A stretch of 40,344 nucleotides of DNA from Myxococcota bacterium (GCA_036012755.1 DASCPX010000105.1:1-40344); one strand, 5' to 3'; positions 9,584 to 34,411 are shown, counted from the stretch's first letter. The notes: a model not told the origin generated them from the letters alone. Numbers and translations are program-made.

Positions 9584-11434
9584 GTGATCCCCCTTCTTGT
9601 CAGCCTCGCCTACGCCGACGACCTCTGGCAGCTCGAGCTGTCCCGGGCTCCTGTCGCCGAGTTCGCCCCCCACCTGAGCTCCGAGGACGCCGGCGAGCGC
9701 GCCCGCGCCGCCCTGGCCCTGGGCCGGCTCACCGACGAGGACGCCCTGGTCCCGCTCGCGACCCTGGTCACCGATCCGGAGGCCGAGGTCCGAGCCAACG
9801 CCGCCTTCGCGCTCGGACTCACCCCGGGCGGAGACGCGCTCATCAGGGCCGCCCTGGAGGGCGAAGGCGACGAGAGGGTGCGCGAGCGCCTGGTCCTCGG
9901 GCTGGGCCTGCACCCAGACGTCCTGAACCTGGGTCTGCTGCAAGCAGCCCTCGGTGCGAGCCCCGGCGAGGCCCGCGCGGCCGGCGTCGCCCTCGGCAAG
10001 TACGCGAGGGCGGAGGTCGAAGGGGTCGACGACGACGAGATCATCGCGGCCCTGACCGCCTCGATGGAGCGCCTGCTCGACACCGAGCCGCGGCAGACCG
10101 CCGCCTTCGCCATCGCCCGCATCAACCCAGAGGACCCACCCGACCTCGCCGCGCTCCGGCATCGCGCCCGAACCGACCGGGACCCCGTCGTCCGGGCCTT
10201 CCTGGTCCGCGGCTTGACGGCAGCCAGCGAAGCCGACGGCTACGACCTGCTCGGTCCAGCATCCCGGGACCCGGATGTCGGCGTGCGCGTCGCCGCAGGC
10301 CGCGGGCTGTCGAAGCTCGGCATGCCCGAAGAGCCGACCAGGCGCCTGCTGTCCGACCCGTCCGAGCAGGTGCGGATGGCCGCGATCGAGGGACTCGCCA
10401 GCGAGGACGCGATCGACCTGCTCCTGCCCCTGCTGAGCGAGGACAACCCGCGCATCGTGGCGACGGTTGTGCGCTCGCTGTCGGCCGCCGGCTGGGAGGA
10501 CCACCTCCGCGACGCCCTCGCCCACGAGGACGCCGGCGTGCGTGCGGCGGCGGTCGGAGGCCTGACAGAGGTCGACCAGCTCGTGCGTCTGGCCAACCGC
10601 GGTGAGGAGGCCCGCATCCGGACAGCCGCTGCCAGCCGCCTGCTCGAGCTGGAGGAGCGCGGGGCCGCTCCCGCGCTCCTCGAGGCCAGCGACCCGGCCG
10701 TCGTCGGGGTCGGCCTGATGCTCCTGAAGGACTCCCCGAGCGCCGAGGACCTGGACCTGGCGCTCGAGGCGATGTCCGGCGCCACGGACCTCGACATCCT
10801 CCGCGAGGGGCTGGGGGTCGTCGCCAACGCAGTACCCGAGCTGCGAGATCCCCCCCCCGAGGCCGGTCTCGTCGTGCGACGTGCCCTGGCCTCCCCCAGC
10901 CACAGCGTGCGCGTGGCCGCGGGGCCCGCCGCAGAGGCGCTGGGCATGGACTACGTCGAGCCCTGGCCCCTGAAGCTGCCCGAGCTGGAGGACGTCGAGC
11001 GCATCGTCAGCGCACGCATCCTGACGGACAGCGGCGAGATCCGCGTTCGCTTCCGCACCGAGGTGGCCCCCTACACGGTCTGGAACTTCGCGAAGCTCGC
11101 CGACGACGACTTCTTCGACGGCCTCGCCTTCCACCGGGTCGTGCCCGACTTCGTCATCCAGGATGGCTGCCCCCGGGGTGACGGCTGGGGCGGCCCCGCC
11201 TGGTCGATCCCGGATGAGCTCTCCTGGCTGCCCTATGACGAGGGTGTCCTCGGCATGGCGCTGTCCGGACCGGACACGGGGGGCTCCCAGTGGTTCCTCA
11301 CCCTCTCGCCACAGCCACACCTCGATGGTGCCTACACGGTGTTCGGAGACCTCGACGTGGGTCAGGGTGTGATGCAGTCCGTGCACGAGGGCACGGTCAT
11401 CGAGGACGTCGTGATCGAACGGCTGCCGCGCTAG
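9584..11434 (+). CDS. Exported HEAT-repeat protein with C-terminal cyclophilin-type peptidyl-prolyl isomerase
   Basis: Repeated D-x-x-x-x-V-R-x-x-A-A-x-x-L-G HEAT units; C-terminal APYTVWNF, FFDGLAFHRVVPDFVIQDGCP, GMALSGPDTGGSQWF, HLDGAYTVFG; short signal peptide (V)IPLLVSLAYA; start GTG 9584. Confidence 0.9.
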   Translation: MIPLLVSLAYADDLWQLELSRAPVAEFAPHLSSEDAGERARAALALGRLTDEDALVPLATLVTDPEAEVRANAAFALGLTPGGDALIRAALEGEGDERVRERLVLGLGLHPDVLNLGLLQAALGASPGEARAAGVALGKYARAEVEGVDDDEIIAALTASMERLLDTEPRQTAAFAIARINPEDPPDLAALRHRARTDRDPVVRAFLVRGLTAASEADGYDLLGPASRDPDVGVRVAAGRGLSKLGMPEEPTRRLLSDPSEQVRMAAIEGLASEDAIDLLLPLLSEDNPRIVATVVRSLSAAGWEDHLRDALAHEDAGVRAAAVGGLTEVDQLVRLANRGEEARIRTAAASRLLELEERGAAPALLEASDPAVVGVGLMLLKDSPSAEDLDLALEAMSGATDLDILREGLGVVANAVPELRDPPPEAGLVVRRALASPSHSVRVAAGPAAEALGMDYVEPWPLKLPELEDVERIVSARILTDSGEIRVRFRTEVAPYTVWNFAKLADDDFFDGLAFHRVVPDFVIQDGCPRGDGWGGPAWSIPDELSWLPYDEGVLGMALSGPDTGGSQWFLTLSPQPHLDGAYTVFGDLDVGQGVMQSVHEGTVIEDVVIERLPR

Positions 11435-11491
11435 TGCGCGCGTTCCGAAGTCCTTGATGGGTCGCAGGCATCGCCTGACGCGTGCACTGGC

Positions 11492-11526
11492 GGCCCGCGT
11501 GAGCGGGCCCGGGCGCGGAGCGCCCG
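11492..11526. terminator. Tandem GC-rich hairpins between convergent genes (possible bidirectional terminator)
   Basis: GGCCCGC-GTGA-GCGGGCC (11492-11509) directly followed by CGGGCGC-GGA-GCGCCCG (11510-11526); no U-tract. Confidence 0.45.
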
Positions 11527-12556: not shown

Positions 12557-14148
12557 CGAACCTCCGCCGGCGTGACCCGATGGGGGAGGCCACCGAGTGT
12601 CATCACCGTCACGGCGTGCTTGCCGTCACCGTCCTCGTCACAGACACTCCGCGCCGTGTAGCCCTCGAGGCTCAGCTCCACTGCGTAGCGACAGGCGGTC
12701 TGCATCGAGCCGATGCCGAGCTCCGGGATCCCCTCCCACTCGACCACCTCCGAGTCCAGCTCGGCGACCCCCCGAGGGCCGCCCCGATAGGGCAAGTAGT
12801 GCCCCCGCTCGTCGTAGGCCTTCTGCTCGGCGTCGGCGATGCTCATGAGCACCGACAGCGCCTCGGTCGAGGGCGGGTGACCGATGGGATCGTCGGACTT
12901 CGGCGCGCGCTGCGCCACCATGGCGGCGACCCAGTGCTGGTAGCCGGGTGCGCTGATGGTGAATCGAAGCGCCTCCCCCTCGTCTCGAAGGTGGAGGTCG
13001 AAGGAGGGCAGCGAGTCCCCCGCCAGTTCAGACCGTCCAGCAGCGAAGAGGGCGGCGCGGATGGCCTCCGAGTTGACAAAGACGCTGACACCAGGGTCCT
13101 CGGCCGAGGTCCCCTCTCCCCACAGCGTGCCCTGCCCCTCGAGCCAGCCGAGCACGCGAGCGGGGTTCGTCGCAGCGGCCAGGTGGCGGCCCTTGGCACC
13201 AACGAAGAGCGGGGTGCCGTCGTCGGCCTGGACCACGAGGACGCCGTCCGCGCCCAAGGTGCCCTTGCCCTCGCGTTCCATCCTCTTCAGGACCCGACTC
13301 GCCTTTCGAGGCCGCAACAGCGGCGCGACCAACAGGAAGTCGATGGACTCGGTGTCGGCCCAGAGGGCGCCCTCCGCACCGGGCTGGAAGCGCAGGCCCG
13401 AGTCCTCCAGCTCCTCGACCATGGCGCCTAGACTGGCCTGCAGCCCCTGGCCATCGGCCCAGGTGCCCACCAGGTCGTGGATGTCCACGTTGAGGCGGGC
13501 ATAGAGGTCGGGCTCTGTGGTGGACCGCAGCGACGGGGCCTCCGGTGGAGACCGGTCCACCAGGGTTCGATCGGCGGCGTCGAAGGCGCTCCCGTAGACC
13601 AGTCCACTGACGACCTCTCCGCCCCGGGGAGTGAGGAGGAGCACGATCTCCCCAGCCGTCGGCGTGCGCAGCCCGCCCGCGAACACGCAGGTCTCGCCGA
13701 GACCCTCCGCTCGCTCCAGATCGCTGAGGCCGACCGAACCGAGCGCCTCGAGGGGGCTGTCCGCTGACGTCGGCGTCCACGCCCGGACCTCGCCCCGGTC
13801 GCCCAGGGTGGTTTGGGCGACGAGGTTCCCACCGGAGTCCTCCCAGCGTCCCTCGCGGTGGATCCAGCCCTCGGCGTCCAGTCGGTGGCGCTCCGACTCC
13901 AGCCACCCCTCGGCATCGATCAGCCCGGAGGACAGGACGATCGCGACCCCTCCCGGCCCCGGCATCATCGCGACGTGGAAGGGCGCCGCCGCATCGAGGT
14001 GCTCCGCGAAGGGGGTCGCTGACAGGAGCTCCAGCCCCTGGGCCGCGCGGGGGCAGGTCATCACGAAGGCGGGTGGAGCGTCGAGGGAGGTGAGGAAGTC
14101 GATGGCACCGTCATCCGCGTGGGACAACGACAGCAGTGCCAGGAGCAT
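12553..14148 (-). CDS. Exported hypothetical protein with C-terminal type IV pilin-like globular segment
   Basis: Short signal peptide MLLALLSLSHA; C-terminal EALSVLMSIADAEQKAYDERGHY...CRYAV...YTARSVCDEDGDG resembles deltaproteobacterial PilA head domains; 4-nt overlap with the plsX start. Confidence 0.65.
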   Translation of the reverse strand: MLLALLSLSHADDGAIDFLTSLDAPPAFVMTCPRAAQGLELLSATPFAEHLDAAAPFHVAMMPGPGGVAIVLSSGLIDAEGWLESERHRLDAEGWIHREGRWEDSGGNLVAQTTLGDRGEVRAWTPTSADSPLEALGSVGLSDLERAEGLGETCVFAGGLRTPTAGEIVLLLTPRGGEVVSGLVYGSAFDAADRTLVDRSPPEAPSLRSTTEPDLYARLNVDIHDLVGTWADGQGLQASLGAMVEELEDSGLRFQPGAEGALWADTESIDFLLVAPLLRPRKASRVLKRMEREGKGTLGADGVLVVQADDGTPLFVGAKGRHLAAATNPARVLGWLEGQGTLWGEGTSAEDPGVSVFVNSEAIRAALFAAGRSELAGDSLPSFDLHLRDEGEALRFTISAPGYQHWVAAMVAQRAPKSDDPIGHPPSTEALSVLMSIADAEQKAYDERGHYLPYRGGPRGVAELDSEVVEWEGIPELGIGSMQTACRYAVELSLEGYTARSVCDEDGDGKHAVTVMTLGGLPHRVTPAEVR

Positions 14149-14949: not shown

Positions 14950-17900
14950 TCACCGCCGACGGCCAAGCGCCCACCTCACCTCTCGTCTGGACTGGAAGAC
15001 CTCCGACAGCGCTCCAGAGCATGTCCTGCCCATTCGCGTCACGAGGCGAGCCGCTTCGCGCTGGAGCGCGCTCCCGCCCGCAGCGTGGAGGGTCTCCAGC
15101 AACAACGGGGCGTCTCCGACCGCGCGGGCCTCCTCCACCGCCGCCCCCAGGATGTCGGCGTCGCCCAGCTTGCCCGCTTCGAGCAGGACGCGCGCAAGGG
15201 CTCGCCGCTCACCGAGGCCATCGAGCTCCTCGACGGCGTGGGCGACGTCCCGACCCTGCCCGCGAAGGACCGCGACGAGACCGGCGTACTCGGCCTCCCG
15301 CCCTCGCCAGCAAGCGGCCTTCGCCTCGTCGTGGACACGGTTCGCCGCTGCGAGGGCTGCCGCGCGATCCCCGAGGGCGAGCTGGCAGCGAATGCGCGTG
15401 TCGAGCCACTCGACCCGCGATCGCATCGGCGCCTCCGGACTGCCGGCGACCCAGTGGCCCTCGAGCTCGTTGAGCGCCTCGGCGGCATCCCCCGCGCCCA
15501 CCAGGACACGGGCACGGGCCACCCCGGCAAACGCCACCTCGAAGGGATTCTCGGCGCTCCTGGCGACCCGGCCGGCCTCCGCCGCGGTCTCCCAGGCCCG
15601 GTCGAGCAAGCCCTCCCGGACCTCGAGTTCGGACAGATCCGCGAGAGAACGCACCAGCCGCTGAGGGCTGCCCTCCCGGCGCAGCCAGCCGGCCTCCTGC
15701 CGGAGGTGGCGCAGGGCGTCACCGAGCCTGCCAGCGCCCGCGTAGATCGCGCCGATCCCACCATGGGCGAGCGCGGCCAGCTCGCGCTCTCCCGAGGCCA
15801 AGGCCTGGTCGACGACCTGGCGGTAGTCCTGTCCCGCCTGCCGCATCCGCCCCATCTGGGCGCGGCAGCGCGCCCGTAGCAACAGGGCGCGTGCTGCGAC
15901 GACGCCGTCACGCCCCTCCAGGACGGAGGTGCACTGCTCCTCGGCGCGGGTGAGCTCGCCCACCCGATACAGCGCCCGTGCCCTGGCCACACCGGCAGAC
16001 CCCGCCATGATGTCGAGTCCCTGGTCCTCGGCCAGGGAGCTGGCGGCGGCGAGAGCATCCAGAGCCTCGCGAGGGCGTCCGATCTGCATCGCGGCACGCC
16101 CGCGAATGAGCGCTGCCCGGGCGGCGGTGCGCGCATCGAGCTCACTGCCGAGGCTGGCCCGGAGGAGGACCGCTAGCGCGTCAGCGCTGCGCCCGCGCGC
16201 CTCGAGGAACTCTGAGAGCTCGACCAGCGCTCGCCCCGCCTCCGATGGCGCCGCTCCGTGGGCCCTGTGCCACGCGGCGCGCTCGACAGCCCAAGGCTCG
16301 CGTCGCCCGCCGAGGGCGAGGTGAAGCGCCTGGTGGACCTTGCACACGCGCGCGGGGCCGGCCTCCCGAAGAAGCACGGCGGCGAGCGCAGGCCTTCGGA
16401 TGCCCACCCAGCCACCCTCACGGGTCGCGAGGTGACGCTCTTCGAGCCGAAACGGCGCGAGCTCCGCATCTTCGATCCCCGCCGCCTGGAGGGAGAGACG
16501 CTCCGGGAGTGGGTTGCGGGCGACCGCCAGCAGCTCGAGGAGGCGCCGCTCATCCAGCTCGAGCTTGTCGAGACGGGTGCGGAAGATCATCGCCAGACCA
16601 CTGTCCTGGGTCATCCGGGCGCTCGGCGCCATCGTCCACGCCGGCTCGCCGCTGTCCGTGCGACCCTCGCAGCGCAGCACGCCGCGCCGGTAGAAGTCGC
16701 GCAGCGTGAAGACGACCGCGCCCGGAAGCCCACCTGTGAACTCGTGGATCCGACGGTCCTGGCCGGCTGGGACCCGGGGCGTTCCAAGCATTCCGGCGAT
16801 GAGCTCGCCGACCTCTGCTACCTCCAGGGCCCGCAACGGGACGACGTGTCCGGGGATGCCCTCCGCCGCGTGGAGCCCGGTGCAGAAGACCGAGACCAGC
16901 GGGCGCTGGAGCACTCGGATCAGGCTCGTCCGCCCACGCGCCGGCGACAGATCGATGCGCTCCACGACGACCGTCAGGGCGCCATCCCTCGTCAGGGTCT
17001 CGACGGCGATGGCCAGGGCCTCCGGATCTCCGGGGAGCGGACCCACCTCGGACTCCAGGGCGCGCCGAAGCCGACGCAGCGGGGCCATCGCTCCGCCCCG
17101 CCCGTCGCAGCGCAGCCCGAACACCCTATGTCCCCGTCCCTTCGCCAACTCCCAGGCCTCGCGGACCAGTCGACCGGCACCCATGCCCGGCTCGCCGACG
17201 ACCTGGAGAAAGCCCCCCTCCTCCAGGAGCGCCTCCAGCGCCCCCATCGCTGCCGCGCGGCCAGCGAGCGGCGGCCGCCTGAGGCCACGCGTGAAGTCCC
17301 GGTGACCCGTCAGGATCGCGCGGGCGAGCGTGGCGGTCTGGGGCCTGGAGGAGGGGTCCCGGGCCATCAGCTTCGTCACCAGATCAGCCAGGCGGAGGCT
17401 GGTCCCGGCAGGCAAGGCCGGCAGCTCGCCGCGGGTGTGGGCGTCGAGATAGCCAGCCGGTCCCCTCGCCTTGTAGGGACGCCGGCCCGCAAGGGACTCG
17501 AAGAGGGTCACGCCCAGCGCATAGAGGTCCGCGCGCTGGTCGCTCCCCGCACCCGCTATCTGCTCGGGGGCCATGTAGGCGTAGGTCCCGAGGACATCGC
17601 CGACCCCCACGTCCCCGGGCTCCTCGGGGTCACGAGCCAGACCCAGGTCCAGCAGCTTGACGCGCCCATCAGAGCAGAGGAACACGTTGCCCGCCTTCAC
17701 ATCTCGGTGGACGACCCCGCGAGCGTGGAGAAAAGCGAGGGTGTCCAGCAGGGACTCGGCGAGGGCCAATACCTCCTGCTCGGCGAGGGATCCCCTGGTG
17801 CGCAGGGCGTCGGAGAGCGCCACGCCGTCGAGCAACTCCAGGGCGAGGTAGGGGCGGGGTGGTCCTTCGCTGATCTCGTAGCAAGTGGGCAGTCCCGGGT

Positions 17901-21437: not shown

Positions 21438-21493
21438 GAACCACCTTCGGGGGCGAGCGGTTAGCTTCATGCTCGACCTTTCCAGGAGGCAAA

Positions 21494-22201
21494 GTGTTGA
21501 TTCTCATGGCCCTCACCGGGTGCAAGGACCCGACGGGTATCTGGCTGTTCCAGCTCGAGTCCGGCGACATCGAGTGCACCGACACGGTCACCGAAAACTA
21601 CACGGATGGCTCGGCCACCGACACCACGACCACCGGTGACTGGACCATCGTCGAGTCCGAGAGCATGAGCCCCTCGCTCGTGTTCGGGCAGATCGTCAAG
21701 CACAGTCGCAACGAAGGCGTGCTCGTCATCGGAGATTTCGTGTTCCCGGGCACCCTCGAGGGTGGGATCTGGACCTTCACGTGGACCGGTGAGGAGACGA
21801 CCAGCGACAGCGAGACCCACGCGGACGGCTACACCTACACGCGCGATGTCCTCGGAACCAGCACGACCACCTGGACCCTGACGGTCTCCGGCGACAACGC
21901 CGAAGGCACGGGCAGCACCGACACGGACGAGACCCGCAGCTGGACCGAGACGGACGAGTGGGACACCCTCGAGGTCGGCGTCGACACCAGCAAGGTGCCC
22001 TCTCCGAACTACCTCGAGGACGAGGACGGCTTCCCGGTCCTCAACGAGCCTGAGGAGTCCGACTGCTCTTCCGGGAGATGTGAGCTCTCTGCCCAGTCAG
22101 TGTGCAGCGGCAGCGCTCCGTTCTCGGCGGTCTGGGCAGGCTTCCTCGAGGAGGACGCCTACAACGGCGTCTCACGGGCGCGCCAGGACCCCGGCACCTG
22201 A
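21494..22201 (+). CDS. Thr/Asp-rich hypothetical lipoprotein
   Basis: AGGAGG SD, (V)LILMALTG-C lipobox, beta-rich acidic sequence with several Cys. Confidence 0.75.
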   Translation: MLILMALTGCKDPTGIWLFQLESGDIECTDTVTENYTDGSATDTTTTGDWTIVESESMSPSLVFGQIVKHSRNEGVLVIGDFVFPGTLEGGIWTFTWTGEETTSDSETHADGYTYTRDVLGTSTTTWTLTVSGDNAEGTGSTDTDETRSWTETDEWDTLEVGVDTSKVPSPNYLEDEDGFPVLNEPEESDCSSGRCELSAQSVCSGSAPFSAVWAGFLEEDAYNGVSRARQDPGT

Positions 22202-22908
22202 TGTCGGTCCTCCTCCTCCTCACGCTCGCCGCGGACGCCGCCGAACTCCCGGTCGCCCTTCGTCCGGCCATAGTGGACGCTGGCGGAGAAGGCGGGAAGA
22301 ACAAGGGCAAGAAGAAAAAGAAGAAGAAGGCGGGCTGGAGCTCGGCGCCCTTCGTCCAGCCGCAGATCGGCGCCGTCATGCTGGCGGCGAACGGGGGCGG
22401 CGCCCTCGCGGCAGACCTCGGTTTCACGGGTGGAGCGCAGTACCGCTGGACAGGCGATCCGAAGCTGCGAGGCCAGAGTCACGTCGCCCTGTCGGGTCAG
22501 CTTGGCGCCGGCGTGCTCGGAACGGACGCTCGCGTGGGCACGAGGCTGGGCCCTGTGGTCGGAGCTCTCTCTCCGCAGCTCGGGCTGGAGCTCTTCTGGA
22601 ACCGAGCCGCCTGGTCCGGGGCGTCGCTCGCCGCCTCTCCAGGGGTCGCCATCCCGCTGGCGCTCAAGGTCGGCAAGGGCGATGTCCGTGCAGATTTCGG
22701 CGTCGCCCCAGCGTGGCTCTCGAACACCAACCGGCGCACGCCCTCCCGCGCAACGGGCCTCCCGGGTTTTGCCCACGAGATCTCCTACTCCGCCGCCCTC
22801 GAGATGAAGCGCGACAGCCTACGCCTCGGCCTGGCGTACGAGGCACAGGTCCGCGAAGTCGGCACCACCCACACCCTCGGCCTGCGGGTTCGCCGCAAGC
22901 TGGGGTGA
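22201..22908 (+). CDS. Exported hypothetical protein, probable outer-membrane beta-barrel, with poly-Lys tract
   Basis: ATG overlaps the upstream TGA; hydrophobic N-terminus, KNKGKKKKKKK tract, alternating amphipathic strands (LGLELFW, LRLGLAY, HTLGLRVR). Confidence 0.6.
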   Translation: MSVLLLLTLAADAAELPVALRPAIVDAGGEGGKNKGKKKKKKKAGWSSAPFVQPQIGAVMLAANGGGALAADLGFTGGAQYRWTGDPKLRGQSHVALSGQLGAGVLGTDARVGTRLGPVVGALSPQLGLELFWNRAAWSGASLAASPGVAIPLALKVGKGDVRADFGVAPAWLSNTNRRTPSRATGLPGFAHEISYSAALEMKRDSLRLGLAYEAQVREVGTTHTLGLRVRRKLG

Positions 22909-23631: not shown

Positions 23632-25464
23632 ATGCTGCTCTTCGGGCTGGCGCTGGCCCACACTCCCCACGACACGACGACCTTCCTCGCAGTCGACGAG
23701 GACGGGCGCCTGCTCACCGCGCTGTCCCGCACCCCCGAGCTCCTGCTCCTGAGCTCCGAGGACGAGGGACGAAGGTGGGACCGCGATCGCTGGCTCGGTG
23801 ACATCCCCACGGACGGTGTCTGGCTGGACGGCGAGGCGTTCGTGGTCGACGGGAGTGACGGCATCTCCTTCGCGGACATCTACGAGGGAGAGCTCTGGAC
23901 CGGAGGCGAAGCGGGCCTCTTCATCGACGGCGAGCCGGTCACTGACGAGGTCATCGTCGCGCTCGCCTCGCCCTGCTACGCGACGACGGATCGCGTGGTG
24001 TGCCAGGGGGAGCACAGCCTCGATGCCCAGGTGGTCGACATCGCCTGGGGGGGAGACCAGACCTACGTGGCCACCGACGGCGAGGGTCTCCTCGAGCTCG
24101 TCGGAGAGAGCTGGGAGCGCGTGGACGGCCCGGGGGATCGCGTCGCCTGCGTCGATGTGCTCGACGGCGTGCTCTACGTCGCCGAGTTCGCCGACATCCT
24201 CTGGGTCGACGGGGTCTCCAGCGAGCCCTTTCCCGAGACCCAGGAGGGGCCCGGCAATCCCCCTGACGGACGCCACTATTTCGGCTTCGAGCAAAGTCAG
24301 GAGGCGGTCTGGCTGGCCAGCTGGGAGGGCATCCTCAGCAGTGACGACCAGGGCCAGAGCTGGCAGGAGCATCCTGTCATCACCCCAGAGGTGCACCGCT
24401 CCGTGGCGATCGACGACCAGGGTCGCTGGTACCTCGGCAGCTATGGCGGCGGGCTTGTTCGCTTCGACGCCTCCACGGGGATCTCGGAGCCGCTGTCGAA
24501 GACCTCACCTGCCGGTTTCGTACGCCAGGTAGAGGTCGGAGACACGGTCTGGTTCACCGAGAAGGGGCAGCTGTGGCGCTTCGACGACCCTGACTGGACC
24601 TCCATCGAAGGCAGCGCAGAGGACATCTCCGTGGATGGCTCCACGTTGTTGGTAGCCGGCGAGGACGGAGTCCTGCGCTCGACGGACGGAGAGGTCTTCG
24701 TGCAGCTCCTCCAAGGCGACTTCGAGCACGTCGCCCTCGACGGGGAGCGCTGGGCCGCGCTGGACTCCGACGGCACCCTGACCCTCGACGGCGAGGTCGT
24801 GGGCGATGGCTATCAGGGCGTCAACGACATCGCTCTGGACGAGGGCGTCGTCGTGCTCTCGACGTCTGCCGGGCTGATCCGGACCGACGGCTCGGTCGAG
24901 CACGCCGGAGAGTGGGTCGAGGCCTGGGAGGACGGAGTCGCCCTGCTCGACGACGGGCACGTGGTCACGGACCTGGCGGTCGTCGGCGACATCACGCTCC
25001 GGAGCACACACGACGGCGTCTTCGATCAGGACGGCGACCTGGTCAGCAACGTGCTGCTCATCGACGCCGGCCACCCCGGCTGGAGCGGCGAGGCCATCGC
25101 CCACACCGACACCGAGTCGATCCGCTGGACCCGGCACGTCGTTTCCCCGTGGGAGAGCCTGAGCCTGTCATTCCACGGGGAGGGGCTCCGCCTCCACGGC
25201 GTCGGTACCGTGCTCGTCGACGGCGAGGAGGTCGAACCCTGCGCGCTGGTCTCGCCCGGCTACCACACGCTGGAGATCCCGGGACCGGCCGAGGTCGACG
25301 CAGTGGAGATCCTCCTCGGCCGTGGCTGGCAGGACCTGGACTGCGGCGAGGAGGAGGAGGAACCACCCAGCTCCCGCTGCGGAGGCTGCGCGTCCCTCGA
25401 TCTGGCAGGCGGGGCCTGGCTTCTCGCCCTGCTCCTGGCCGCTCGGCGCGACCGCGGGTCGTGA
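23632..25464 (+). CDS. Exported beta-propeller-like (BNR/Asp-box) protein with MYXO-CTERM-like C-terminal anchor
   Basis: Signal MLLFGLALA; Asp-box motifs SEDEGRRW, SDDQGQSW, STDGEVF; tail EEEEEPPSSRCGGCAS...AWLLALLLAARRDR. Confidence 0.75.
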   Translation: MLLFGLALAHTPHDTTTFLAVDEDGRLLTALSRTPELLLLSSEDEGRRWDRDRWLGDIPTDGVWLDGEAFVVDGSDGISFADIYEGELWTGGEAGLFIDGEPVTDEVIVALASPCYATTDRVVCQGEHSLDAQVVDIAWGGDQTYVATDGEGLLELVGESWERVDGPGDRVACVDVLDGVLYVAEFADILWVDGVSSEPFPETQEGPGNPPDGRHYFGFEQSQEAVWLASWEGILSSDDQGQSWQEHPVITPEVHRSVAIDDQGRWYLGSYGGGLVRFDASTGISEPLSKTSPAGFVRQVEVGDTVWFTEKGQLWRFDDPDWTSIEGSAEDISVDGSTLLVAGEDGVLRSTDGEVFVQLLQGDFEHVALDGERWAALDSDGTLTLDGEVVGDGYQGVNDIALDEGVVVLSTSAGLIRTDGSVEHAGEWVEAWEDGVALLDDGHVVTDLAVVGDITLRSTHDGVFDQDGDLVSNVLLIDAGHPGWSGEAIAHTDTESIRWTRHVVSPWESLSLSFHGEGLRLHGVGTVLVDGEEVEPCALVSPGYHTLEIPGPAEVDAVEILLGRGWQDLDCGEEEEEPPSSRCGGCASLDLAGGAWLLALLLAARRDRGS

Positions 25465-26207: not shown

Positions 26208-27341
26208 TCAGATCCCATCGTCACCCAGCACGAGCTGGTTCTCGGCCCACGGGAGCACCTCCCCTTGGTTGTCGTCGGCGGCCCCGAGGACGTTCCAGCC
26301 GACCTCCCGCCCATAGCCCAAGGTGAACGCCGCTTGGACTCCCACGGGCTCGTACCAGAGCAGGCCCTTGCTGTCGCTGCCCGCGTTGGCGCTGTAGGCG
26401 AAGGGGCGCTCTTCGCCCTGGTACTCGAACTCCTGGTCCCCGTCGTCGCCCCAGGCCAGGGCGATGTAGGCAGCGCTGACGAGCCCGAGCGCCGAGTAGT
26501 CGGTTCCGTCTGCGGAGATGGAGCTCAGCGACTCCTTCGCGGGCATGCCGATGGGCTGGAACTCGAAGCGCCCGTCGGCCCCAGCCTCCGCGAGTCCGTG
26601 CCACGGCGCCCGGTCGGTCGGGTCCCCGCTGATGAGCTCCTGGAAGAACTCGACGTTCCACAGGGTGACCGTGACCTGACCGTCGGGCAGCTCCGCGTCG
26701 ACCTTCCCGGAGACGCCCTCCTCGGTCCGGTTCAAGGGCAAGAGGTTCGACTCGACGTCCCAGACGAAGAAGGACTGCTCGATGGCGTAGACATCCTTGA
26801 TCTCTCCGACGTCCAGGTCCGGGATGCTGATCAGGTACCAGCCCGGCCCCTCGTCGAAGCCCGAGGCGTTCCCGGAGACGACGTGGACCAACAGGTCGGT
26901 GGAGTTGCCACCGACGATGGTGTCGGCCGGGTCGATCACGCCGTTTCCGTCGTCGACGTAGGCAACGAGCATGAACGTCGTGCCCGTCATCCCCTGGATG
27001 TCGTACTCCTGCTCTGCGGGGACGGCGTCGGGGACGCCGAGCTTGAAGGGCCGCTCCACGCCCGGGGAGAGGTCCTCGACGAGCGCCTCGTCCACGAGCT
27101 CGAAGACGTTCATGAAGGGCTCGGTCTCCGCCGCCCCGAAGATGAACTCGAAGCGAACGACACCCACGGTGACCCGGGGGAGCGCGTTCCGAGAGCTCCG
27201 GTCGGGGAGCATGTCCAGCGAGCCGCTGATCTCGATGACGTGGTCGTCACCAGAGTCACCGGAGTCCTCGGGGCCGACCTTGGTGCGCCAGTCGTAGTCG
27301 CTCTTCGTGATGAGCGCGCAAGCCGAGAGGAGGAACAGCAT
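26208..27341 (-). CDS. Acidic hypothetical lipoprotein with two internally repeated domains
   Basis: MLFLLSA-C lipobox at ATG 27341; paired motifs AYVDDGN/AWGDDGD and GPGWYLI/EVGWNVL. Confidence 0.72.
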   Translation of the reverse strand: MLFLLSACALITKSDYDWRTKVGPEDSGDSGDDHVIEISGSLDMLPDRSSRNALPRVTVGVVRFEFIFGAAETEPFMNVFELVDEALVEDLSPGVERPFKLGVPDAVPAEQEYDIQGMTGTTFMLVAYVDDGNGVIDPADTIVGGNSTDLLVHVVSGNASGFDEGPGWYLISIPDLDVGEIKDVYAIEQSFFVWDVESNLLPLNRTEEGVSGKVDAELPDGQVTVTLWNVEFFQELISGDPTDRAPWHGLAEAGADGRFEFQPIGMPAKESLSSISADGTDYSALGLVSAAYIALAWGDDGDQEFEYQGEERPFAYSANAGSDSKGLLWYEPVGVQAAFTLGYGREVGWNVLGAADDNQGEVLPWAENQLVLGDDGI

Positions 27342-27443: not shown

Positions 27444-27911
27444 ATGCTCCTGCTGCTGGGCTCACTGTCGATCTCCCCCGCGCACGCGAAGGACCTGCGC
27501 AAGCGCGTGGGCGTCGGGCTGGACAACCAGTTCGGCCATGTCTCCAGCTTCTCCGTGAAGGCAGGCATCCCGACACCGGATCCGGCCATCAACCTGCAGG
27601 TCCAGGGCACCTTCGGCCTCTCCGTGCTCGACGGCGCGGCGGACGACTGGTGGTTCGGCGGACGCGTGCTCTACGGCGTCGTCGCAGAGGACAACATGAA
27701 CCTCTACGCGGCCGCAGGGGCCGGCTGGCGGGTGGCCGGTCGGGACAAGTCGCTCCGGCTCTACCCCGCCGTCGGCACCGAGTTCTTCCTCTTCGGGCTC
27801 GAGAACCTCGGCCTCTCCGCCGAGGTCGGCCTCGGGATCGACCTCGGCACCGGCGCTGACTTCTACAGCGTCGGCTCCGCCGCCGGCATGGGCGTCCACT
27901 ACTACTTCTGA
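27444..27911 (+). CDS. Small outer-membrane beta-barrel protein (probably 8-stranded)
   Basis: AGGAGG SD, signal ending AHA, amphipathic strands (NLYAAAGAG, GTEFFLF, LGLSAEVGLG), C-terminal GVHYYF beta-signal. Confidence 0.82.
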   Translation: MLLLLGSLSISPAHAKDLRKRVGVGLDNQFGHVSSFSVKAGIPTPDPAINLQVQGTFGLSVLDGAADDWWFGGRVLYGVVAEDNMNLYAAAGAGWRVAGRDKSLRLYPAVGTEFFLFGLENLGLSAEVGLGIDLGTGADFYSVGSAAGMGVHYYF

Positions 27912-27919
27912 GGCTTCCG

Positions 27920-29158
27920 ATGCTGCTCATCGCAATGACAGTGGGCTGCGCAGACTCCCCCTGCGCTGATGTCGACGGGAGCAAGCTCTATGTCTTCCCG
28001 CCGACCCAGGAACAACGGAGCGTGCCCTCGAACGCCCGGGTCTTCGAGACGATCCAGGACGCCCTGGACCACGCCGAGCCGGGCACGGCCGTGTGCGTCG
28101 CCGAGGGACACTATCGCGAGTCACCGACCGTCTACACGCCCGACGTGATGCTCTACGGCGCCGGCCCCGAGCGCACCGAGATCATCCCCGAGACCCTCCA
28201 GATACGAGCGCCAGGCACGACGGTCCTCAGCGTCGGGGCGGCCGGCGTCCACGTGCGTGGCTTCAGCCTCCGCCACGGCGCGACCGGCATCTACGTCGAG
28301 CCTGGCACCAGCGCGCTGGTCGAGGACGTCGCCCTGGAGGACAACGGCGTCGGCCTGCTCGCCCCGGAGCCTTCGGGGCTGGGTCTCGTGGGGCTCGACG
28401 TAGCGAGGAACACCAGCATCGGGCTGCTGGTCACCGCGAACCACGACTTCCCGACCGTGACCGTCCACGGGGGTCGTTTCGTCGGGAACGGCACCCTCGG
28501 CGAGAGCGAGGTCGGGGGCATCTACTCCGACACCGCGCTCGAGCTGCGCGGAGTCACCCTCCGCGACAACGTCGGAGAGCTGACAGCGGACGTCTTCACC
28601 CAGCGCGGCCTGACGCTCACCGACGTCGTACTCGAGCGGGCCGCGCGACTCGGAGGCGCCCCACGAATCTCCAGCCAGGACGGCCTCGTCGCCCGGGACC
28701 TCAGCGTCCACACCTACGGCAGCGTCGGCCTCGACATCGGCTGCCGGGAAGGAGGCGTAGAGATCGACAACCTCGCGCTGTCCGACGCCGGGGGTGGCGC
28801 CACCGGCCTGGTGCTGGAGGACTGTGTCGGCCGCATCGCCCACGCCACGCTGGTCGACACTACCCAGACAGCGCGTCCAGCGCTCTCCGGGACCGGAACG
28901 CTGGAGATCGTCAACACCGCCTTCGTCGGCTTCGGCGCCCCGGATCTCGATGGATCCCTCCAGACCGCCGCGGTCTTCACCGGGACGGCCTCTGACGCAG
29001 CGCTGATGCGGCCCCTGCCTGTCGATCCCGACCTTCGCCCGCAGAGCGACTCGCCGTTGATCGACGCCGGAGTGATGGTCGGCGTCGGCTCGGACCTGGA
29101 CGGACGCCCGCGCCCCTCTGGGGACGCCCCGGACATCGGAGCTTACGAGTTGTACTGA
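27920..29158 (+). CDS. Right-handed beta-helix lipoprotein (pectin-lyase-like fold)
   Basis: MLLIAMTVG-C lipobox; TIQDALD...VCVAEGHYRE cap; Asn-ladder repeats; C-terminal DLRPQSDSPLIDAG...DLDGRPR...PDIGAYE motif typical of beta-helix proteins. Confidence 0.85.
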   Translation: MLLIAMTVGCADSPCADVDGSKLYVFPPTQEQRSVPSNARVFETIQDALDHAEPGTAVCVAEGHYRESPTVYTPDVMLYGAGPERTEIIPETLQIRAPGTTVLSVGAAGVHVRGFSLRHGATGIYVEPGTSALVEDVALEDNGVGLLAPEPSGLGLVGLDVARNTSIGLLVTANHDFPTVTVHGGRFVGNGTLGESEVGGIYSDTALELRGVTLRDNVGELTADVFTQRGLTLTDVVLERAARLGGAPRISSQDGLVARDLSVHTYGSVGLDIGCREGGVEIDNLALSDAGGGATGLVLEDCVGRIAHATLVDTTQTARPALSGTGTLEIVNTAFVGFGAPDLDGSLQTAAVFTGTASDAALMRPLPVDPDLRPQSDSPLIDAGVMVGVGSDLDGRPRPSGDAPDIGAYELY

Positions 29159-29242
29159 CCCCAATGCTGCTGTATTTTTCTCGCGCACCCGCGAGGAGGA
29201 GCAGGTGGCCGACAAGACGGGTCTTCGGAAGGGAGGAGTGGC

Positions 29243-32200
29243 TTGCTGCTCCTAGCAGTCGGCCTCGCCTACGGCGCCGCCTACCAGCCCGAGCTCGAGT
29301 GGCGCACGCTCGAGACAGAGAACTTCAACATCACCTTCCACCAAGGTGAGGAGCAGCTGGCCAACGAGCTCGGCTTCATCGCAGAGGACGTGCACGTCCG
29401 CCTGACCGCGGACATGCAGAACACTCCGAAGCGGGCGACCGAAGTCGTCCTCGTCGACCACACCGACATCGCCAACGGCTACGCGATGCGCTTGCCGGTG
29501 AACACGATCGTCATCTTCGTGACGGCCCCGCAAGAGGCCTCCGGACTGGCCCTGTACGAGGACTGGCTCCAGACGATCATGACCCACGAATACGCCCACA
29601 TCCTGCACCTCGACACGGTGCGTGGGCCACCCCTGCTCCTGCGCTACGTGCTGGGTCGCGTGGTCAGCGTGAACGACCTCTCGCCGTGGTGGATCGTCGA
29701 GGGCAGCGCCACCTTCCAGGAGACCCGCCACACCACTGGCGGCCGAGGACGCAGCAACCACACCGACATGATCCTCCGCATGGCGGTGATCGAGGACGGC
29801 TTCCCCGAGCTCGGCCAGATGGACGGCTTCCTCACGCAGCCGCCGGGGGGCAACACGCGCTACCTCTTCGGACAGTCGCTGCTGTCCTACATCCAGCAGC
29901 ACACAAGCGACGACGCCATCACGCGCTGGAACCTCAGCTACGGCTCCTGGGTCCCCTACTGGCTCCCTGCGAAGCAGGTCTTCGGCAAGGGGTACAGGGC
30001 CTGGTACGAGGAGTGGAAGGCCCACCTCGAGGGGGTCTACGAAGACCAGCAGATCGAGGTCGCCGAGCTGGGTGTCACCTGGCCGCAGCTGTTGATGAAC
30101 GACGAGCTGGACGGTTCCTGCTCCGGGCCACGCTTCTCTCCCCAGGGGGACAAGCTCGCCTTCGCTTGCAGTGACCGGCGAGATGGCGCCAACGTCTACC
30201 TGGCTGACGGCGAGGGCGGCGAGATCGAGATCGAGGTCGAGGAAGGCTGGGCCAAGCAGTTCGCCTGGCGGCCCGACGGCGAGGCCTTCGCCTACAGCTC
30301 CACCCACATCGTCAACGACTACAGCCTCTACGAAGACGTCTACTTCCACGTCCTCGGCGAGGAGACCGCGGTCCGCCTCACGAGCGGAAAGCGAGCCAGG
30401 GACCCGGAGTTCAGCCACGACGGCGCGGATCTGCTCGTCGTGACCAACGAGGTCCAGAACAACAACCTGGCGCGGATGCGCATCGACCAGAGCCTCGAGG
30501 AGCTGACCGAATACGCGGATCACACGCAGCTCTCCACGCCACGCTACTCGCCGGATGGGCGCTACATCGCGCTGTCCGCCTGGATGGACGGAGATCGGGA
30601 CATCTGGATCTTCGAGGCCGACGGGACGCCCTATCGCCGCGTGACGATGGACATGTACACCGATCGGGACCCGACGTGGTCCGCGGACGGAGAGCGGCTC
30701 TACTTCTCCAGCGATCGCTCGGGCATCTCGAACATCTACGCCGTGGACCTGGAGACCGAGCAGCTCTGGCAGGTCACGAACGTGCTCTCCGGAGCCTTCC
30801 AGCCCACCGTGCGCGCCGACGAGCAGGTCATCGCCTGGCTCCACTACACCCACAACGGCTACCGAGTCGCGCTCATGGAGCTCCAGCCGGAGGCCTGGCG
30901 GGATCGCGGCCTGCTGCCCCGGCCGCTGGTCCACGGCGGGCCGCTGTCGTCCTGCTTGCCCGGAGAGCCAGGAGACCGGGTGGCCCAGAGCGGTGGCGTG
31001 GCTGGCTTCGAAGAGCACCCCGGGATGCGTGGGCACACGCCCCGGCCCATCCACACGGTCCTGGACCAGCCGGTGAAGGGTCCGGATCTCGACGACATCG
31101 CGGAGGCGGACGAGGACAAGGGCGAGCACGACGACGAGTACCCCTTCGACTTCGAGGTGCGGGACTACGAGGCCCTCTCGACCCTGGTCCCGCCTCGCTA
31201 CGTGCTGCCGACGATCTACAGCACGAGCACGGGCTTCATGGGGGCGCTGTCGACCAGCGGCGTCGATACCCTGCGACGGCACGGCTACAGCATCTACGCG
31301 ACCTACCGGACGGACGCGAACTTCGCCGGCGGAGGCGCCGCCTACACCTGGAACCGGTGGAAGCCGATCTTCAGCTGGGGCGCTCACACCTACGTCGTGC
31401 CCTACGGCAAAATCTACCGGCAGCAGACGCCGGAGCCCGGCGCCAACATCCCCGTCGTCCAGGAGACCGACCGCCAGTACTGGGACCACCGGACGCGCTT
31501 CTGGACCGCCGCCAGCGTCTCCCGCCGCGAGCGCACGGCCATCTATGCCCGTTACACCGGTGTCTACCGGACACCCAAGGACAAGCCGGGCCCGCACGCC
31601 TACCGGGACTTCCTGCCCACCCGGGGCTTCCTCAGCACGATCGGCGGCGGCTGGCGCTACGCGAAGGGCAAGGTCTACACCTACTCGATCGCGCCAGAGG
31701 ACGCGCGAGTCCTCGCCCTCGACGCCGAGTGGACCTCTCCCTGGCTCGGCTCCTACACGCTGGACACGAGCGACAAGCCGGTCGCCTTCAATCGCATGCA
31801 GGTCAGCGGCGAGGTGCGCGAGTTCGTCTCCCTGCCCTGGGCCTACAACCACGTCCTCGCGATGCGCGGCGCGGCTGGCATCAGCTTCGGTGACCAGCTC
31901 CGCTACGGCGCCTTCCGGCTCGGCGGCAACTACGGGGAGAGCGGCTACTACCGCCTCCCGGACGAGTGGAAGAGCCTGCGGGGCTACCCCGTCGCGACCG
32001 TAGGAGGCAACGGCTACTACCTCAGCTCCATCGAGTACCGCCTGCCGCTCCGCCGGCTGGACTGGGGCCCGGGCACGCTGCCCCTGTTCCTCCGCACGCT
32101 GCACGGCGCCGCCTTCATGGACATAGGTGACGCCTTCGACGAGCTGACCGAGCTGCAAGAGCCCACAGCGATTCGCGACGGCGGCGCGGTCCTCCCCTTC

Positions 32201-32368
32201 CGCCCGCCTCTGGTCGGAGTCGGCGCCGAGCTGCGGCTCGGCACCATCGTCGGCTGGGGCCTCGGCTTCAACACCCGCGCCGGCTACGCCATCGGGCTGA
32301 CCCGCTCCGACTACTACGCGCCGACGGACCTGCAGACCTTCTACTTCCGGATCGGCAGCTCCTTCTGA
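29243..32368 (+). CDS. Omp85-family protein with N-terminal zincin domain and PD40/TolB-like propeller
   Basis: GGAGG SD + TTG; HEYAH...WIVEGSA gluzincin motif; PRFSPQG, WRPDG, PEFSHDG, PRYSPDG, PTWSADG repeats; LRGY, EYRLPL, GVGAEL and terminal FYFRIGSSF. Confidence 0.87.
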   Translation: MLLLAVGLAYGAAYQPELEWRTLETENFNITFHQGEEQLANELGFIAEDVHVRLTADMQNTPKRATEVVLVDHTDIANGYAMRLPVNTIVIFVTAPQEASGLALYEDWLQTIMTHEYAHILHLDTVRGPPLLLRYVLGRVVSVNDLSPWWIVEGSATFQETRHTTGGRGRSNHTDMILRMAVIEDGFPELGQMDGFLTQPPGGNTRYLFGQSLLSYIQQHTSDDAITRWNLSYGSWVPYWLPAKQVFGKGYRAWYEEWKAHLEGVYEDQQIEVAELGVTWPQLLMNDELDGSCSGPRFSPQGDKLAFACSDRRDGANVYLADGEGGEIEIEVEEGWAKQFAWRPDGEAFAYSSTHIVNDYSLYEDVYFHVLGEETAVRLTSGKRARDPEFSHDGADLLVVTNEVQNNNLARMRIDQSLEELTEYADHTQLSTPRYSPDGRYIALSAWMDGDRDIWIFEADGTPYRRVTMDMYTDRDPTWSADGERLYFSSDRSGISNIYAVDLETEQLWQVTNVLSGAFQPTVRADEQVIAWLHYTHNGYRVALMELQPEAWRDRGLLPRPLVHGGPLSSCLPGEPGDRVAQSGGVAGFEEHPGMRGHTPRPIHTVLDQPVKGPDLDDIAEADEDKGEHDDEYPFDFEVRDYEALSTLVPPRYVLPTIYSTSTGFMGALSTSGVDTLRRHGYSIYATYRTDANFAGGGAAYTWNRWKPIFSWGAHTYVVPYGKIYRQQTPEPGANIPVVQETDRQYWDHRTRFWTAASVSRRERTAIYARYTGVYRTPKDKPGPHAYRDFLPTRGFLSTIGGGWRYAKGKVYTYSIAPEDARVLALDAEWTSPWLGSYTLDTSDKPVAFNRMQVSGEVREFVSLPWAYNHVLAMRGAAGISFGDQLRYGAFRLGGNYGESGYYRLPDEWKSLRGYPVATVGGNGYYLSSIEYRLPLRRLDWGPGTLPLFLRTLHGAAFMDIGDAFDELTELQEPTAIRDGGAVLPFRPPLVGVGAELRLGTIVGWGLGFNTRAGYAIGLTRSDYYAPTDLQTFYFRIGSSF

Positions 32369-32374
32369 GGCCGC

Positions 32375-34411
32375 TCAGGGGTCTCCGTAGATCCAGCGGT
32401 AGGTCATCAGGTAGCCGAGGACGCGGCGGGTGTAGCGGCGGGTCTCCGAGTAGCTGATGTTCTCTGCGAACCAGTCGACCTCTGGGGGCTCCGCGTACTC
32501 GACCAGCCAGCGCTCGACGGCCTCAGAGCCACCGTTGTAGCCCGCGATGGCCAGCGGGAGCCTGGGCTCGACCCCCGCGCCGTGGAAGCGGACGTAGAGC
32601 TCGCCGATCTCGGTCGTGCCAAGCCAGGCGTTGTAGCCGGGGACGTAGAGCCGGTCGGGGTCGTAGGGATCCCCGGGCAGGCGCTGGGCGTGGAGCTCTC
32701 CAGCGAGATCAGGCATCAACTGCATCAGCCCGCGGGCCCCGGCGAGGCTGGTGACGCTCGGGTCCAGGGCTGACTCCGCGGTCATGATCGCGAAGGGCAG
32801 CAGGGGATGAAGTCCGTACTCCGCTGCGGCGCCCTCGACGACGAGCCTCTCCGGACGCGGGTAGCAGGCGGTGGTGGCGATGGGAGACTCGCCGGCTCGC
32901 CAGGGCTTGGAGCACCACGGCTTCGCCAGGGCCTGGGCGTCCTTGTAGGCGCCGACCTCGACGAGGAGGTGGGCATAGGACAGGGCCGTGGTCTTGCCCT
33001 TGGCCTTCGCCGCCGGGATCGCGGCGACGAGGCGCTCCCGGGCCCAAGCGAACTGGCCGGCTTCATAGAGCGCGATGCCGAGGCTCACGTCCTCGTTGGA
33101 GGCGACGAAGGCTGGGTCGAGCTCCGGCACCTCCACCTCTGGGATACCCGGGAAGGTGCGACCCAGTCGCTCGGCCGCGAACCAGGCATGCCCGCTCACC
33201 GGGTAGCTCTTCAGGAGCCGGGACAGGGCCGCCGTCTCCCCCGCCGCGTCGCCTTGCATGCCGCGAATCCGTGCCTTCCAGTACAGGGCCTGGGGCGCGA
33301 GGCTGGAGCTCCCGTGCTTCGCGAGCAGCGTATCGAGCCAGCCCTCGGCCTCCTCCAGCTGCCCGAGGCGCAGGCACGACCAGCCCAGGAACCAGTAGGT
33401 CTCGTCCGCGTGCTTCGTCGAGGGCCGGCGCTCGAGGTGGTCGGAAAAGAGCGGGATCGCGTCGGTCAGGCGCCCCTCGTCGTATGCGAGGTAGCCGAGC
33501 TTGTAGCTGGCCGTGTCGGCCCGCTTCGTCGACGGGTAGAGCTCGATGAGGCGCGCGTAGTAGTCCGCCGCCGCGGCATAGTCGCCGGTCCGCGATGTGC
33601 CCAGGGCGTAGTGGTAGAGCGTCTCGGCGCCGCCCTTCGTCCCAGGCTCGGTGGGAGACAGCTCGGCCATCACCGCCATCGAGCGCGGGTAGTCCTTGGC
33701 CGAGAACAGCGCCATCGCGAGCTCGTGGGTCCAGCTCGCGTCGCTGCGTCCGGTCGCCTCGCCGATGGCGTCGTAGAGCGGGATGGCCTCGCCCGCCCGG
33801 TAGACCTTCACCAGGTTTCGGGCTCGCGTCAGGGCGAGCTCCTGCCCTTCGGCAGTGCCGACATCCGGCACCGGTGAGCCCATCGCCGCGAGGCGCTCGG
33901 CGCTGGCGGCCGAGTAGGGGCTCTTGACGTTCTTCGCCCAGTTGGAGCGGTGGGCATCGAGGGCCGCGTCGAGGTCCCCGCGCCCTTCGGCGCCCACGGC
34001 TAGCCAGTACAGAGCCTCGCCGGTGCTGTCTCCGCCGAGCAGCCCGCGCAGGTGTGGTCGGGCGTCCATGCTGCGACCGGCGCCGACCAGAGCGCGGCCG
34101 TAGAGCATCGTCGCGTCGTCCCCAGCGGTCCCCGGCAGATCGACCCCCCGAACGGTCTCCACCACGAACTCAGGGTCGTCCTCTACCCATCCCTGGGCGA
34201 TGAGGACCCGAGCGTAGGGGTCGAGCGGCCCACCGCCGAGGTAGGCGACGAGGTGCTCCGCGTGGCCGCATCGGGCGAGCGCCATCGCCTCTTCCATGTC
34301 GGCGACGTCACCAACGAGGGTGATGACCTCGCCGCAGTCGCCCCGTCGAAGGGCGGTGAGCAGGTCGGCCGGAAGGGCGGCACGGGCGACCGGAAGGAAG
34401 GCGAGCAGCAT
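32375..34411 (-). CDS. Slt70-like lytic transglycosylase with TPR repeats
   Basis: TPR-like helices; AIMTAESALDP (catalytic Glu), AGARGLMQLMP, AGYNGG, ETRRYTRRV. Confidence 0.92.
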   Translation of the reverse strand: MLLAFLPVARAALPADLLTALRRGDCGEVITLVGDVADMEEAMALARCGHAEHLVAYLGGGPLDPYARVLIAQGWVEDDPEFVVETVRGVDLPGTAGDDATMLYGRALVGAGRSMDARPHLRGLLGGDSTGEALYWLAVGAEGRGDLDAALDAHRSNWAKNVKSPYSAASAERLAAMGSPVPDVGTAEGQELALTRARNLVKVYRAGEAIPLYDAIGEATGRSDASWTHELAMALFSAKDYPRSMAVMAELSPTEPGTKGGAETLYHYALGTSRTGDYAAAADYYARLIELYPSTKRADTASYKLGYLAYDEGRLTDAIPLFSDHLERRPSTKHADETYWFLGWSCLRLGQLEEAEGWLDTLLAKHGSSSLAPQALYWKARIRGMQGDAAGETAALSRLLKSYPVSGHAWFAAERLGRTFPGIPEVEVPELDPAFVASNEDVSLGIALYEAGQFAWARERLVAAIPAAKAKGKTTALSYAHLLVEVGAYKDAQALAKPWCSKPWRAGESPIATTACYPRPERLVVEGAAAEYGLHPLLPFAIMTAESALDPSVTSLAGARGLMQLMPDLAGELHAQRLPGDPYDPDRLYVPGYNAWLGTTEIGELYVRFHGAGVEPRLPLAIAGYNGGSEAVERWLVEYAEPPEVDWFAENISYSETRRYTRRVLGYLMTYRWIYGDP

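Follow-up and report, generated by a model that had tools for sequence, protein, structure and literature searches.

The tripartite n-h-c signal peptide with its basic n-region is among the most general rules of protein export, and it is built into prediction tools. A PROSITE-type rule for lipoproteins places the Cys at positions 15-35 and expects a basic residue among the first seven, and engineered poly-Leu signals have shown that uncharged signals are exportable when the core is more hydrophobic. Here we report on twelve predicted protein N-termini encoded on a contig of 40,344 bases from a Myxococcota bacterium (the complete contig C105 of assembly G000, referred to below as the window; the assembly comprises 6.73 Mb in 250 contigs, at about 70% G+C). 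An earlier note on this DNA had proposed that the lineage uses very short signals without a basic n-region. We found that this proposal is borne out, though the trait is graded across the family and order and is not a property of one genome. The N-termini are probably minimal Sec-type signal peptides standing on genuine translation starts.

As compared with canonical Gram-negative Sec signals processed by signal peptidase (SPase) I, the SPase I-type signals found here share the N-terminal position, an uncharged hydrophobic core and small residues at −3 and −1 (AYA, SHA, AHA, ARA), and they are likewise carried by outer membrane (OM) proteins, periplasmic enzymes and receptors. They differ in having no basic n-region, in being mostly 9-15 residues long, as against 21-25 residues in outgroups analysed with the same pipeline, and in having a Leu-richer core. 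Similarly, the lipoprotein-type (SPase II-type) signals resemble those of E. coli Lpp type in the lipobox L-[LAIV]-[AGS]-C, in the presence of genes for Lgt and LspA, and in an acidic or Ser/Thr-rich linker past the Cys, whereas the Cys lies at positions 7-11 (mode 8, genome-wide) instead of about 20, with no Lys or Arg before it. All of these short lipoprotein signals would fail the PROSITE-type rule. Unlike signals of the twin-arginine translocation (Tat) system, none of the twelve window signals has a twin-arginine motif, and no Arg stands ahead of the core in any of them. The prlA (secY) suppressors of E. coli are the closest parallel on the side of the translocon: prlA alleles, which permit export with defective or missing signals, lie in the ring, plug, gate and interior of the SecY channel (PMC7530735). 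Defective or uncharged signals are thus exportable in those mutants, and in the present case a Leu-rich core is found together with a change in the pore ring. The prlA and poly-Leu systems are laboratory constructs or reduced-fidelity single mutants, in contrast to a natural state that covers roughly a fifth of a predicted proteome and is conserved across genera. Moreover, the prlA4 positions F286 and I408 are unchanged here, and the changed residue is that at the I187 position.

Literature searches returned no description of this natural short uncharged signal state. A broad proteomic survey of prokaryotic signals was designed around a length of 15-35 residues and early basic residues (PMC3509430), and would have overlooked such signals for this reason. 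Judging from published rule sets of this kind, the usual predictors would miss the short signals.

All twelve N-termini read as the earlier note had written them, and its claim that the seven SPase I-type signals and the lipoprotein-type signals have no Lys or Arg ahead of the core was confirmed (Table 1; each locus is named by the first base of its start codon, and a slash marks the predicted processing site). The −3/−1 sites of the window signals are AYA, SHA, ADA, ALA, AHA, AYG and ARA, with small residues present throughout, and the lipoboxes are VLA-C, LTG-C, SVG-C, LSA-C and TVG-C, with the Cys at positions 8-12. Nine of the twelve proteins have no Pfam family. The protein at 9584 matched Pro_isomerase (E 8.5e-31) and HEAT_2, and that at 29243 matched PD40 (3.1e-11) and, below the 24-bit cut-off, Omp85 (6.4e-5, 23.0 bits).

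Table 1. Short N-terminal signals encoded in the window, with the predicted processing site marked by a slash
Coordinates	Strand	Protein	Signal	Length	Remarks
9584..9616	+	HEAT-repeat/cyclophilin protein	(V)IPLLVSLAYA/DD	11 residues	GTG start; weakest of the twelve
14116..14148	-	531-aa protein without Pfam family	MLLALLSLSHA/DD	11 residues	
20610..20636	+	Lipoprotein-type	MLSIMVVLA/C	9 residues before Cys	Exact protein public
21494..21520	+	Lipoprotein-type	(V)LILMALTG/C	9 residues before Cys	GTG start
22201..22239	+		MSVLLLLTLAADA/AE	13 residues	
22963..22995	+	Lipoprotein-type	MTLLALTLSVG/C	11 residues before Cys	
23632..23658	+	610-aa protein	MLLFGLALA/HTPHD	9 residues	Exact protein public
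27321..27341	-	Lipoprotein-type	MLFLLSA/C	7 residues before Cys	
27444..27488	+	155-aa OM beta-barrel-like protein	MLLLLGSLSISPAHA/KDL	15 residues	Protein ends HYYF
27920..27946	+	Lipoprotein-type	MLLIAMTVG/C	9 residues before Cys	
29243..29275	+	1041-aa protein, PD40 beta-propeller and Omp85-like C-terminus	(L)LLLAVGLAYG/AAYQP	11 residues	TTG start
34379..34411	-	TPR and SLT lytic transglycosylase	MLLAFLPVARA/A	11 residues	SLT 1.5e-16

The short N-termini are genuine translation starts. Eight of them (14148, 21494, 22963, 23632, 27444, 27920, 29243 and 34411) begin at the first ATG, GTG or TTG after a stop codon, and several are pinned, as the earlier note had said, by in-frame stops upstream: a TAG 3 codons upstream of 14148, which is the stop of the preceding gene, a TAG 10 codons upstream of 27444, and a TGA 11 codons upstream of 23632 with no ATG, GTG or TTG between. 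At 22963 the stop lies 18 codons upstream, again with no start between, and the ATG of 22201 overlaps the TGA of the upstream gene (TGATG). Shine-Dalgarno (SD)-like 5-mers at good spacing precede 27444 (GAGGAGGA), 29243 (GGGAGGAG), 21494 (AGGAGG, 5 nt upstream of the start) and 22963, while 20610, 27920 and 22201 have 4-mers and 14148 a 3-mer; no SD-like site was found before 9584, 23632, 34411 or 27341. All nine ATG-start window proteins sought in public collections were present with exactly these N-termini, on 6-14 contigs each (12 for 14148 and 14 for 22201), which indicates that other gene callers and other assemblies agree on the starts. Our own gene caller matched eleven of the twelve starts, and set 9584 at 9281 instead. 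The stretch 9281-9583 has a coding score of 0.08 per codon, as compared with 0.32 downstream; because this extension codes poorly and, in G002 of the same genus, a stop 9 codons ahead of the aligned N-terminus keeps the orthologue from being extended, 9584 is more likely to be the start, although it is the weakest of the twelve. A 131-codon ATG open reading frame (ORF) on the minus strand, 9166-9561, lies opposite the 9584 leader and is a shadow ORF of a kind common at 70% G+C; with a coding score of −61.8 it was ruled out as a gene that would pin 9584.

Genome-wide, the short-signal genes look like other genes at their starts: an SD 4-mer or better precedes 52% and 50% of the two types, as compared with 47% of all genes, an in-frame stop within 5 codons upstream is found in 19% against 16%, and 52% against 49% have no upstream ATG, GTG or TTG in the ORF. 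In 935 genes a stop lies within 5 codons upstream, so that the start cannot be moved; of the 179 lipobox proteins in this subset, 146 had short, uncharged signals, with the length distribution unchanged and a median of 8 residues. An alignment with homologues, the check that the earlier note had asked for, gave the same result. Orthologues in G002 and in G005, from another genus of the same family, carry the same kind of signal, and in three cases a stop lies 3 codons upstream. The orthologue of 9584 begins (V)LTLPFLLAAPALA/DDP in G002 and MNTLMLLSALAYS/AP in G005, that of 34411 begins MLLFLVSFANA/A and MILLLASIAHA/D, respectively, with the stop 3 codons upstream in both, and that of 29243 begins MLSLLSLLYAPAVHA/AAYDP in G005, right after a stop. 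Among the lipoprotein-type signals, the G002 counterparts are MLSIILVMA/C for 20610, MFLLIAG/C for 27341 and MLLVWLSA/C for 27920, the last with a stop 3 codons upstream. In the more distant G003, G006, G021 and G028, most of the corresponding signals are ordinary ones that contain Arg or Lys, such as MRLLLVAALGLSA/C for 27920 and a 29-residue signal including Arg for 29243, both in G003.

To place the window in its genomic context, 5793 genes were called in G000 with a purpose-written codon-usage caller with SD and start-type refinement, and signals were called with a purpose-written heuristic that requires a lipobox or a small-x-small site after an uncharged hydrophobic 7-residue window; the short, uncharged class has a core beginning at residue 1-2 and no Lys or Arg. 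The small-x-small site is built into the detection rule, and hence genome-wide it is no independent test. The 1007 lipobox proteins showed a median of 8 residues before the Cys, and 81% of them had no Lys or Arg before the core, while the 1250 SPase I-like proteins, whose counts are upper bounds, showed a median of 15 residues, with 53% lacking Lys and Arg. The lipobox class is the more specific of the two. Together, 774 and 515 proteins, respectively, fell into the short, uncharged class, that is, 1289 of 2257 signal-type calls and about a fifth of the predicted proteins of G000. In the window, eleven genes were short and uncharged by this heuristic, namely the set of the earlier note minus 9584; a twelfth match, at 38248-38928, looks like a false positive.

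Four genomes from other families of the phylum, 200 kb each, served as controls for the trait. Their signals had medians of 21-22 residues for the SPase II type and were 21-25 residues long for the SPase I type, only 1-3 of 19-33 lipobox proteins lacked Lys and Arg, and the short class made up 1-7 of 47-55 signal-type calls per 200 kb. Tabulated in this way, the signals of G000 are far shorter than those of other families, and the basic n-region is mostly absent. Within the order, the codon model of G000 was applied to relatives. The short fraction was 0.57 in G000, 0.52 in G002, 0.59 in G007, 0.38-0.47 in genus g7 and 0.44-0.45 in g4, and it was lower in G003 (0.32), g5 (0.30), G004 (0.11) and six order members of other families (0-0.39), as compared with 0.02-0.13 in the outgroups. 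Three order members, G022, G026 and G030, had no short signals in 80-kb samples. The trait belongs to a clade: it is strongest in the source genus and several sister genera, weaker in the rest of the order, and absent from the families sampled elsewhere in the phylum.

These N-termini occur on proteins that must be exported, as the earlier note had pointed out for some of them. Short signals are carried by the SLT transglycosylase, the sub-threshold Omp85-like protein, the small barrel, and TonB-receptor and OmpA-domain proteins. Among ten TonB-receptor Plug proteins of G000, six have short uncharged signals by eye (three of which the heuristic flags), three have canonical basic signals, and one is a fusion; among 19 OmpA-domain proteins with a called gene, ten have short uncharged signals and five have signals with Lys or Arg. 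When orthologues are compared, the spacing between the cleavage-type site or Cys and the conserved mature part is constant, whereas the signal ahead of it drifts, or is canonical in the distant ones; at 34411, for example, the small-x-small site is kept while the sequence varies. The commonest lipobox, LLA-C, is found in 202 of the 774 short lipoprotein signals. The mature part of the protein at 27444 begins at the same KDLR as in eleven orthologues, all of which have a basic n-region (MRR.., MSR.., MKR..) and signals of 17-27 residues, and the window copy is the only one without. A structure model made with the eleven orthologues is all-beta (predicted local distance difference test score, pLDDT, 81.7), with residues 1-14 unstructured. 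A Foldseek search of this model against the PDB gave no match at E <= 0.001, and the best rows were all small OM barrels, namely OmpX, the OprF N-domain, NspA and OmpA (E 2e-3 to 9e-3, TM-score 0.46-0.67). In short, except for the basic n-region and the length, and with the SPase I-type core at the lower limit of the usual range, the signals agree with Sec/SPase I and SPase II signals in the features tested.

These signals consist of Met, about 4-8 Leu-rich core residues and then either a small-x-small site or a lipobox with its Cys; Lys and Arg are absent. The SPase I type typically has 9-15 residues in total, and the SPase II type 6-10 residues before the Cys. We propose that export would proceed through ordinary SecA/SecYEG, and that processing would be carried out by LepB or by Lgt/LspA. 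Charge asymmetry across the core may come from the free amino terminus and the acidic first 15 mature residues, and not from a basic n-region, while extra Leu may offset the short core. Two peptide deformylase genes are present in G000, which makes a free amino terminus plausible. The short signals contain 38% Leu and 20% Ala, and the Leu fraction of the core is 0.53 for the SPase II type and 0.39 for the SPase I type, as compared with 0.31 and 0.24 in outgroups. Without Met and the last three residues, the core has a median length of 4 residues (SPase II type) or 7 residues (SPase I type), the latter at the lower limit of the typical 7-15. Over the 15 residues past the site, the net charge is −2.3 and −1.7, respectively, against a background of −0.49. 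As a specific cause of the trait, the acidic early mature region was rejected; it is permissive at most and does not explain the trait alone. The proteome of G000 is acidic as a whole (Asp and Glu 14.7%, Lys and Arg 9.0%), and the lipoprotein at 22963 has a long acidic low-complexity stretch past the Cys (22996-23100), rich in Asp, Thr, Ala and Ser.

The earlier note had also suggested adapted export machinery. At the level of gene presence, G000 has one SecY, one SecA, one Ffh, three S26 peptidases, five Lgt and two LspA, the Lgt and LspA matches all exceeding the Pfam cut-offs. Two lspA and two lgt genes stand in tandem on one strand (lspA-lspA-lgt-lgt, G000:C59:100000-102591), with three more Lgt matches elsewhere. 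Copy number of Lgt and LspA as a trait-specific adaptation was rejected, as Lgt matches numbered 3-6 in each of the 30 relatives and 2-6 in five outgroups with canonical signals. SecY was aligned over 37 sequences, 28 from the order and nine outgroups (two of the same class, seven of the phylum), with E. coli numbering taken from PDB chain 5abb_A. We found that the 28 order members all have Ala (19, G000 among them) or Ser (9) at the I187 position, where the nine outgroups all have Ile. I187 belongs to the isoleucine ring (PMC2171872). At the other ring positions, I82, I86, I191, I278 and I408, G000 has Ile, as do nearly all sequences of the alignment; Val occurs once in the order, at the I82 position, and once in a same-class outgroup, at the I86 position. 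The order-wide change from Ile to Ala or Ser may relax the demand of the channel on signals as prlA alleles do. It is the only candidate machinery adaptation found, and its causal role is putative. The minimal signal-peptide code proposed earlier is supported, whereas for adapted machinery the SecY pore ring is the one, putative candidate, the multiplicity of Lgt being phylum-wide and not specific to the trait. In the SecY of G000 (G000:C80, locus L123, 1288-2637), we also observed that the ring-adjacent S282 position in transmembrane helix 7 is Ala in ten of 28 order members and Ser in all nine outgroups; by eye, the ten with Ala are genera g1-g4, the source genome included.

One possible explanation for the short N-termini is a start-calling artefact, the true starts lying upstream, at a non-canonical codon or behind a frameshift or assembly indel, with ordinary basic n-regions. 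Some loci appear to invite this explanation. A GTG 38 nt upstream of 29243 (29205-29243) and an ATG 30 nt upstream of 21494 (21464-21494) open short out-of-frame ORFs with basic residues (GTG..K..RK.. and ATG..RR..) that would mimic n-regions if fused in frame, an in-frame TTG 22 codons upstream of 27341 (27407), which may be an alternative start for this one gene, would add a mixed-charge stretch, and an in-frame CTG overlaps the upstream TGA (CTGA) before 27920 (27908-27910) and 34411 (34430-34432, minus strand), adding a few residues. Genome-wide, a further in-frame start lies no more than 25 codons ahead of 403 of the 1289 short-signal genes, and for 199 of these the extension would be net-positive. 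However, the leaders at the window loci probably look basic by chance, because a purine-rich SD sequence reads as Arg, Gly or Glu in any frame, and the public call for 27341 is the short form. In-frame stops 3-11 codons upstream pin several window starts, the short-signal fraction is unchanged where upstream extension is impossible, and the same N-termini, with a stop 3 codons ahead, recur in independently assembled genomes of other genera. The eight in-frame codons upstream contain on average 1.21 Lys or Arg in short-signal genes and 1.21 in non-signal genes, with no excess in the other frames, and near-cognate starts with a net-positive extension are at background (187 of 1289, 14.5%, versus 517 of 3451, 15.0%). 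Hidden n-regions were thereby rejected genome-wide, and the upstream stops, orthologues, fixed-start subset and public calls agree that mis-called starts do not explain the signals, as the earlier note had argued. We consider this explanation largely refuted and its truth a very slight chance. Initiation at the CTG of 27920 would place L-R-L-P ahead of the signal; since this looks like the MRLLL.. with which the G003 orthologue begins, the CTG may be a relic of an older start. Alternatively, the N-termini could be real without being cleaved Sec signals, acting as uncleaved anchors or serving a targeting or lipidation route of another kind, with a likeness to c-regions and lipoboxes that is partly coincidental. 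Nine of the twelve window proteins have no Pfam family, and the median SPase II-type core, 4 residues after Met and before the lipobox, seems too short for a bilayer-spanning helix. Against this stand the families that cross the inner membrane and carry these signals (TonB receptors, OmpA-domain and SLT proteins, and the small OM-barrel fold), the small-x-small site or Cys that is fixed relative to the mature part, with a canonical signal substituting there in distant orthologues, the canonical lipobox, and the genes for Lgt, LspA and LepB in the genome. We regard this alternative as improbable, and prefer to read the N-termini as minimal Sec-type signals.

Even so, a number of points weigh against this reading and against a role for SecY in it. 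Export, cleavage and lipidation are inferred here from sequence, and a core of about 4 residues with a lipobox is, to our knowledge, shorter than any known to function in E. coli. Both the gene caller and the signal heuristic were purpose-written, the SPase I-like class includes visible false positives (38248-38928 and 331-1686 in the window, for example), the samples of relatives are small (40-260 kb), and the two same-class outgroups inform the SecY alignment only. The acidic mature start is equal in canonical lipoproteins of G000 and in the outgroups. As for SecY, the I187 column is one of seven columns that fully separate the order from the outgroups, and G022, G026 and G030 carry the change despite showing no short signals. 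Since these three order members have Ala or Ser, the change is not sufficient, and within the order it correlates only loosely with the strength of the trait. It is permissive at best, and may be a neutral clade marker. A third explanation is that the signals are real Sec signals with no adapted component, any Sec system accepting Leu-rich uncharged signals that are followed by an acidic mature start, with the signals shortened by drift and the SecY change neutral. In its favour, lengthening the core or enriching it in Leu can make up for a missing positive charge in E. coli, outgroups with canonical signals already have the acidic flank, and the SecY change is found in order members whose samples showed no short signals; the drift would have a source such as deletion bias or selection on gene 5' ends. 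On the other hand, no such drift is seen in outgroups that have many lipoproteins and these acidic flanks, and the short-signal clade is the clade with the pore-ring change (28 of 28 versus 0 of 9). We hold this explanation to be a serious possibility, somewhat short of even. A further hypothesis, which we offer tentatively and regard as rather doubtful, is that the order re-tuned Sec through the change from Ile to Ala or Ser in the SecY ring, and that on this background several genera cut their signals to Met and about 6-10 uncharged Leu-rich residues for over half of the exported proteins.

If minimal Sec-type signals are indeed used on this scale, the envelope proteome of the clade would be systematically under-annotated, and the lower substrate limit for Sec, LepB, Lgt and LspA would lie well under the textbook value. 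Close relatives that differ in the trait would provide a test ground for the role of the n-region and for proofreading by SecY, and very short natural secretion tags would be on offer. Should SecY re-tuning hold, the order would represent a natural, proteome-wide 'prl' state, redefining the minimum information for Sec targeting and Lgt/LspA processing.

Two proteins of the window call for a remark in other respects. The protein at 29243-32368 combines a weak M48-peptidase-like match, a PD40/TolB-type propeller and an Omp85-like barrel, an unusual architecture for the Omp85 family. On the minus strand, 14950-18114 encodes a 1054-residue protein that begins with a glycine loop like that of Ser/Thr kinases (..IGQGGLADVF..).

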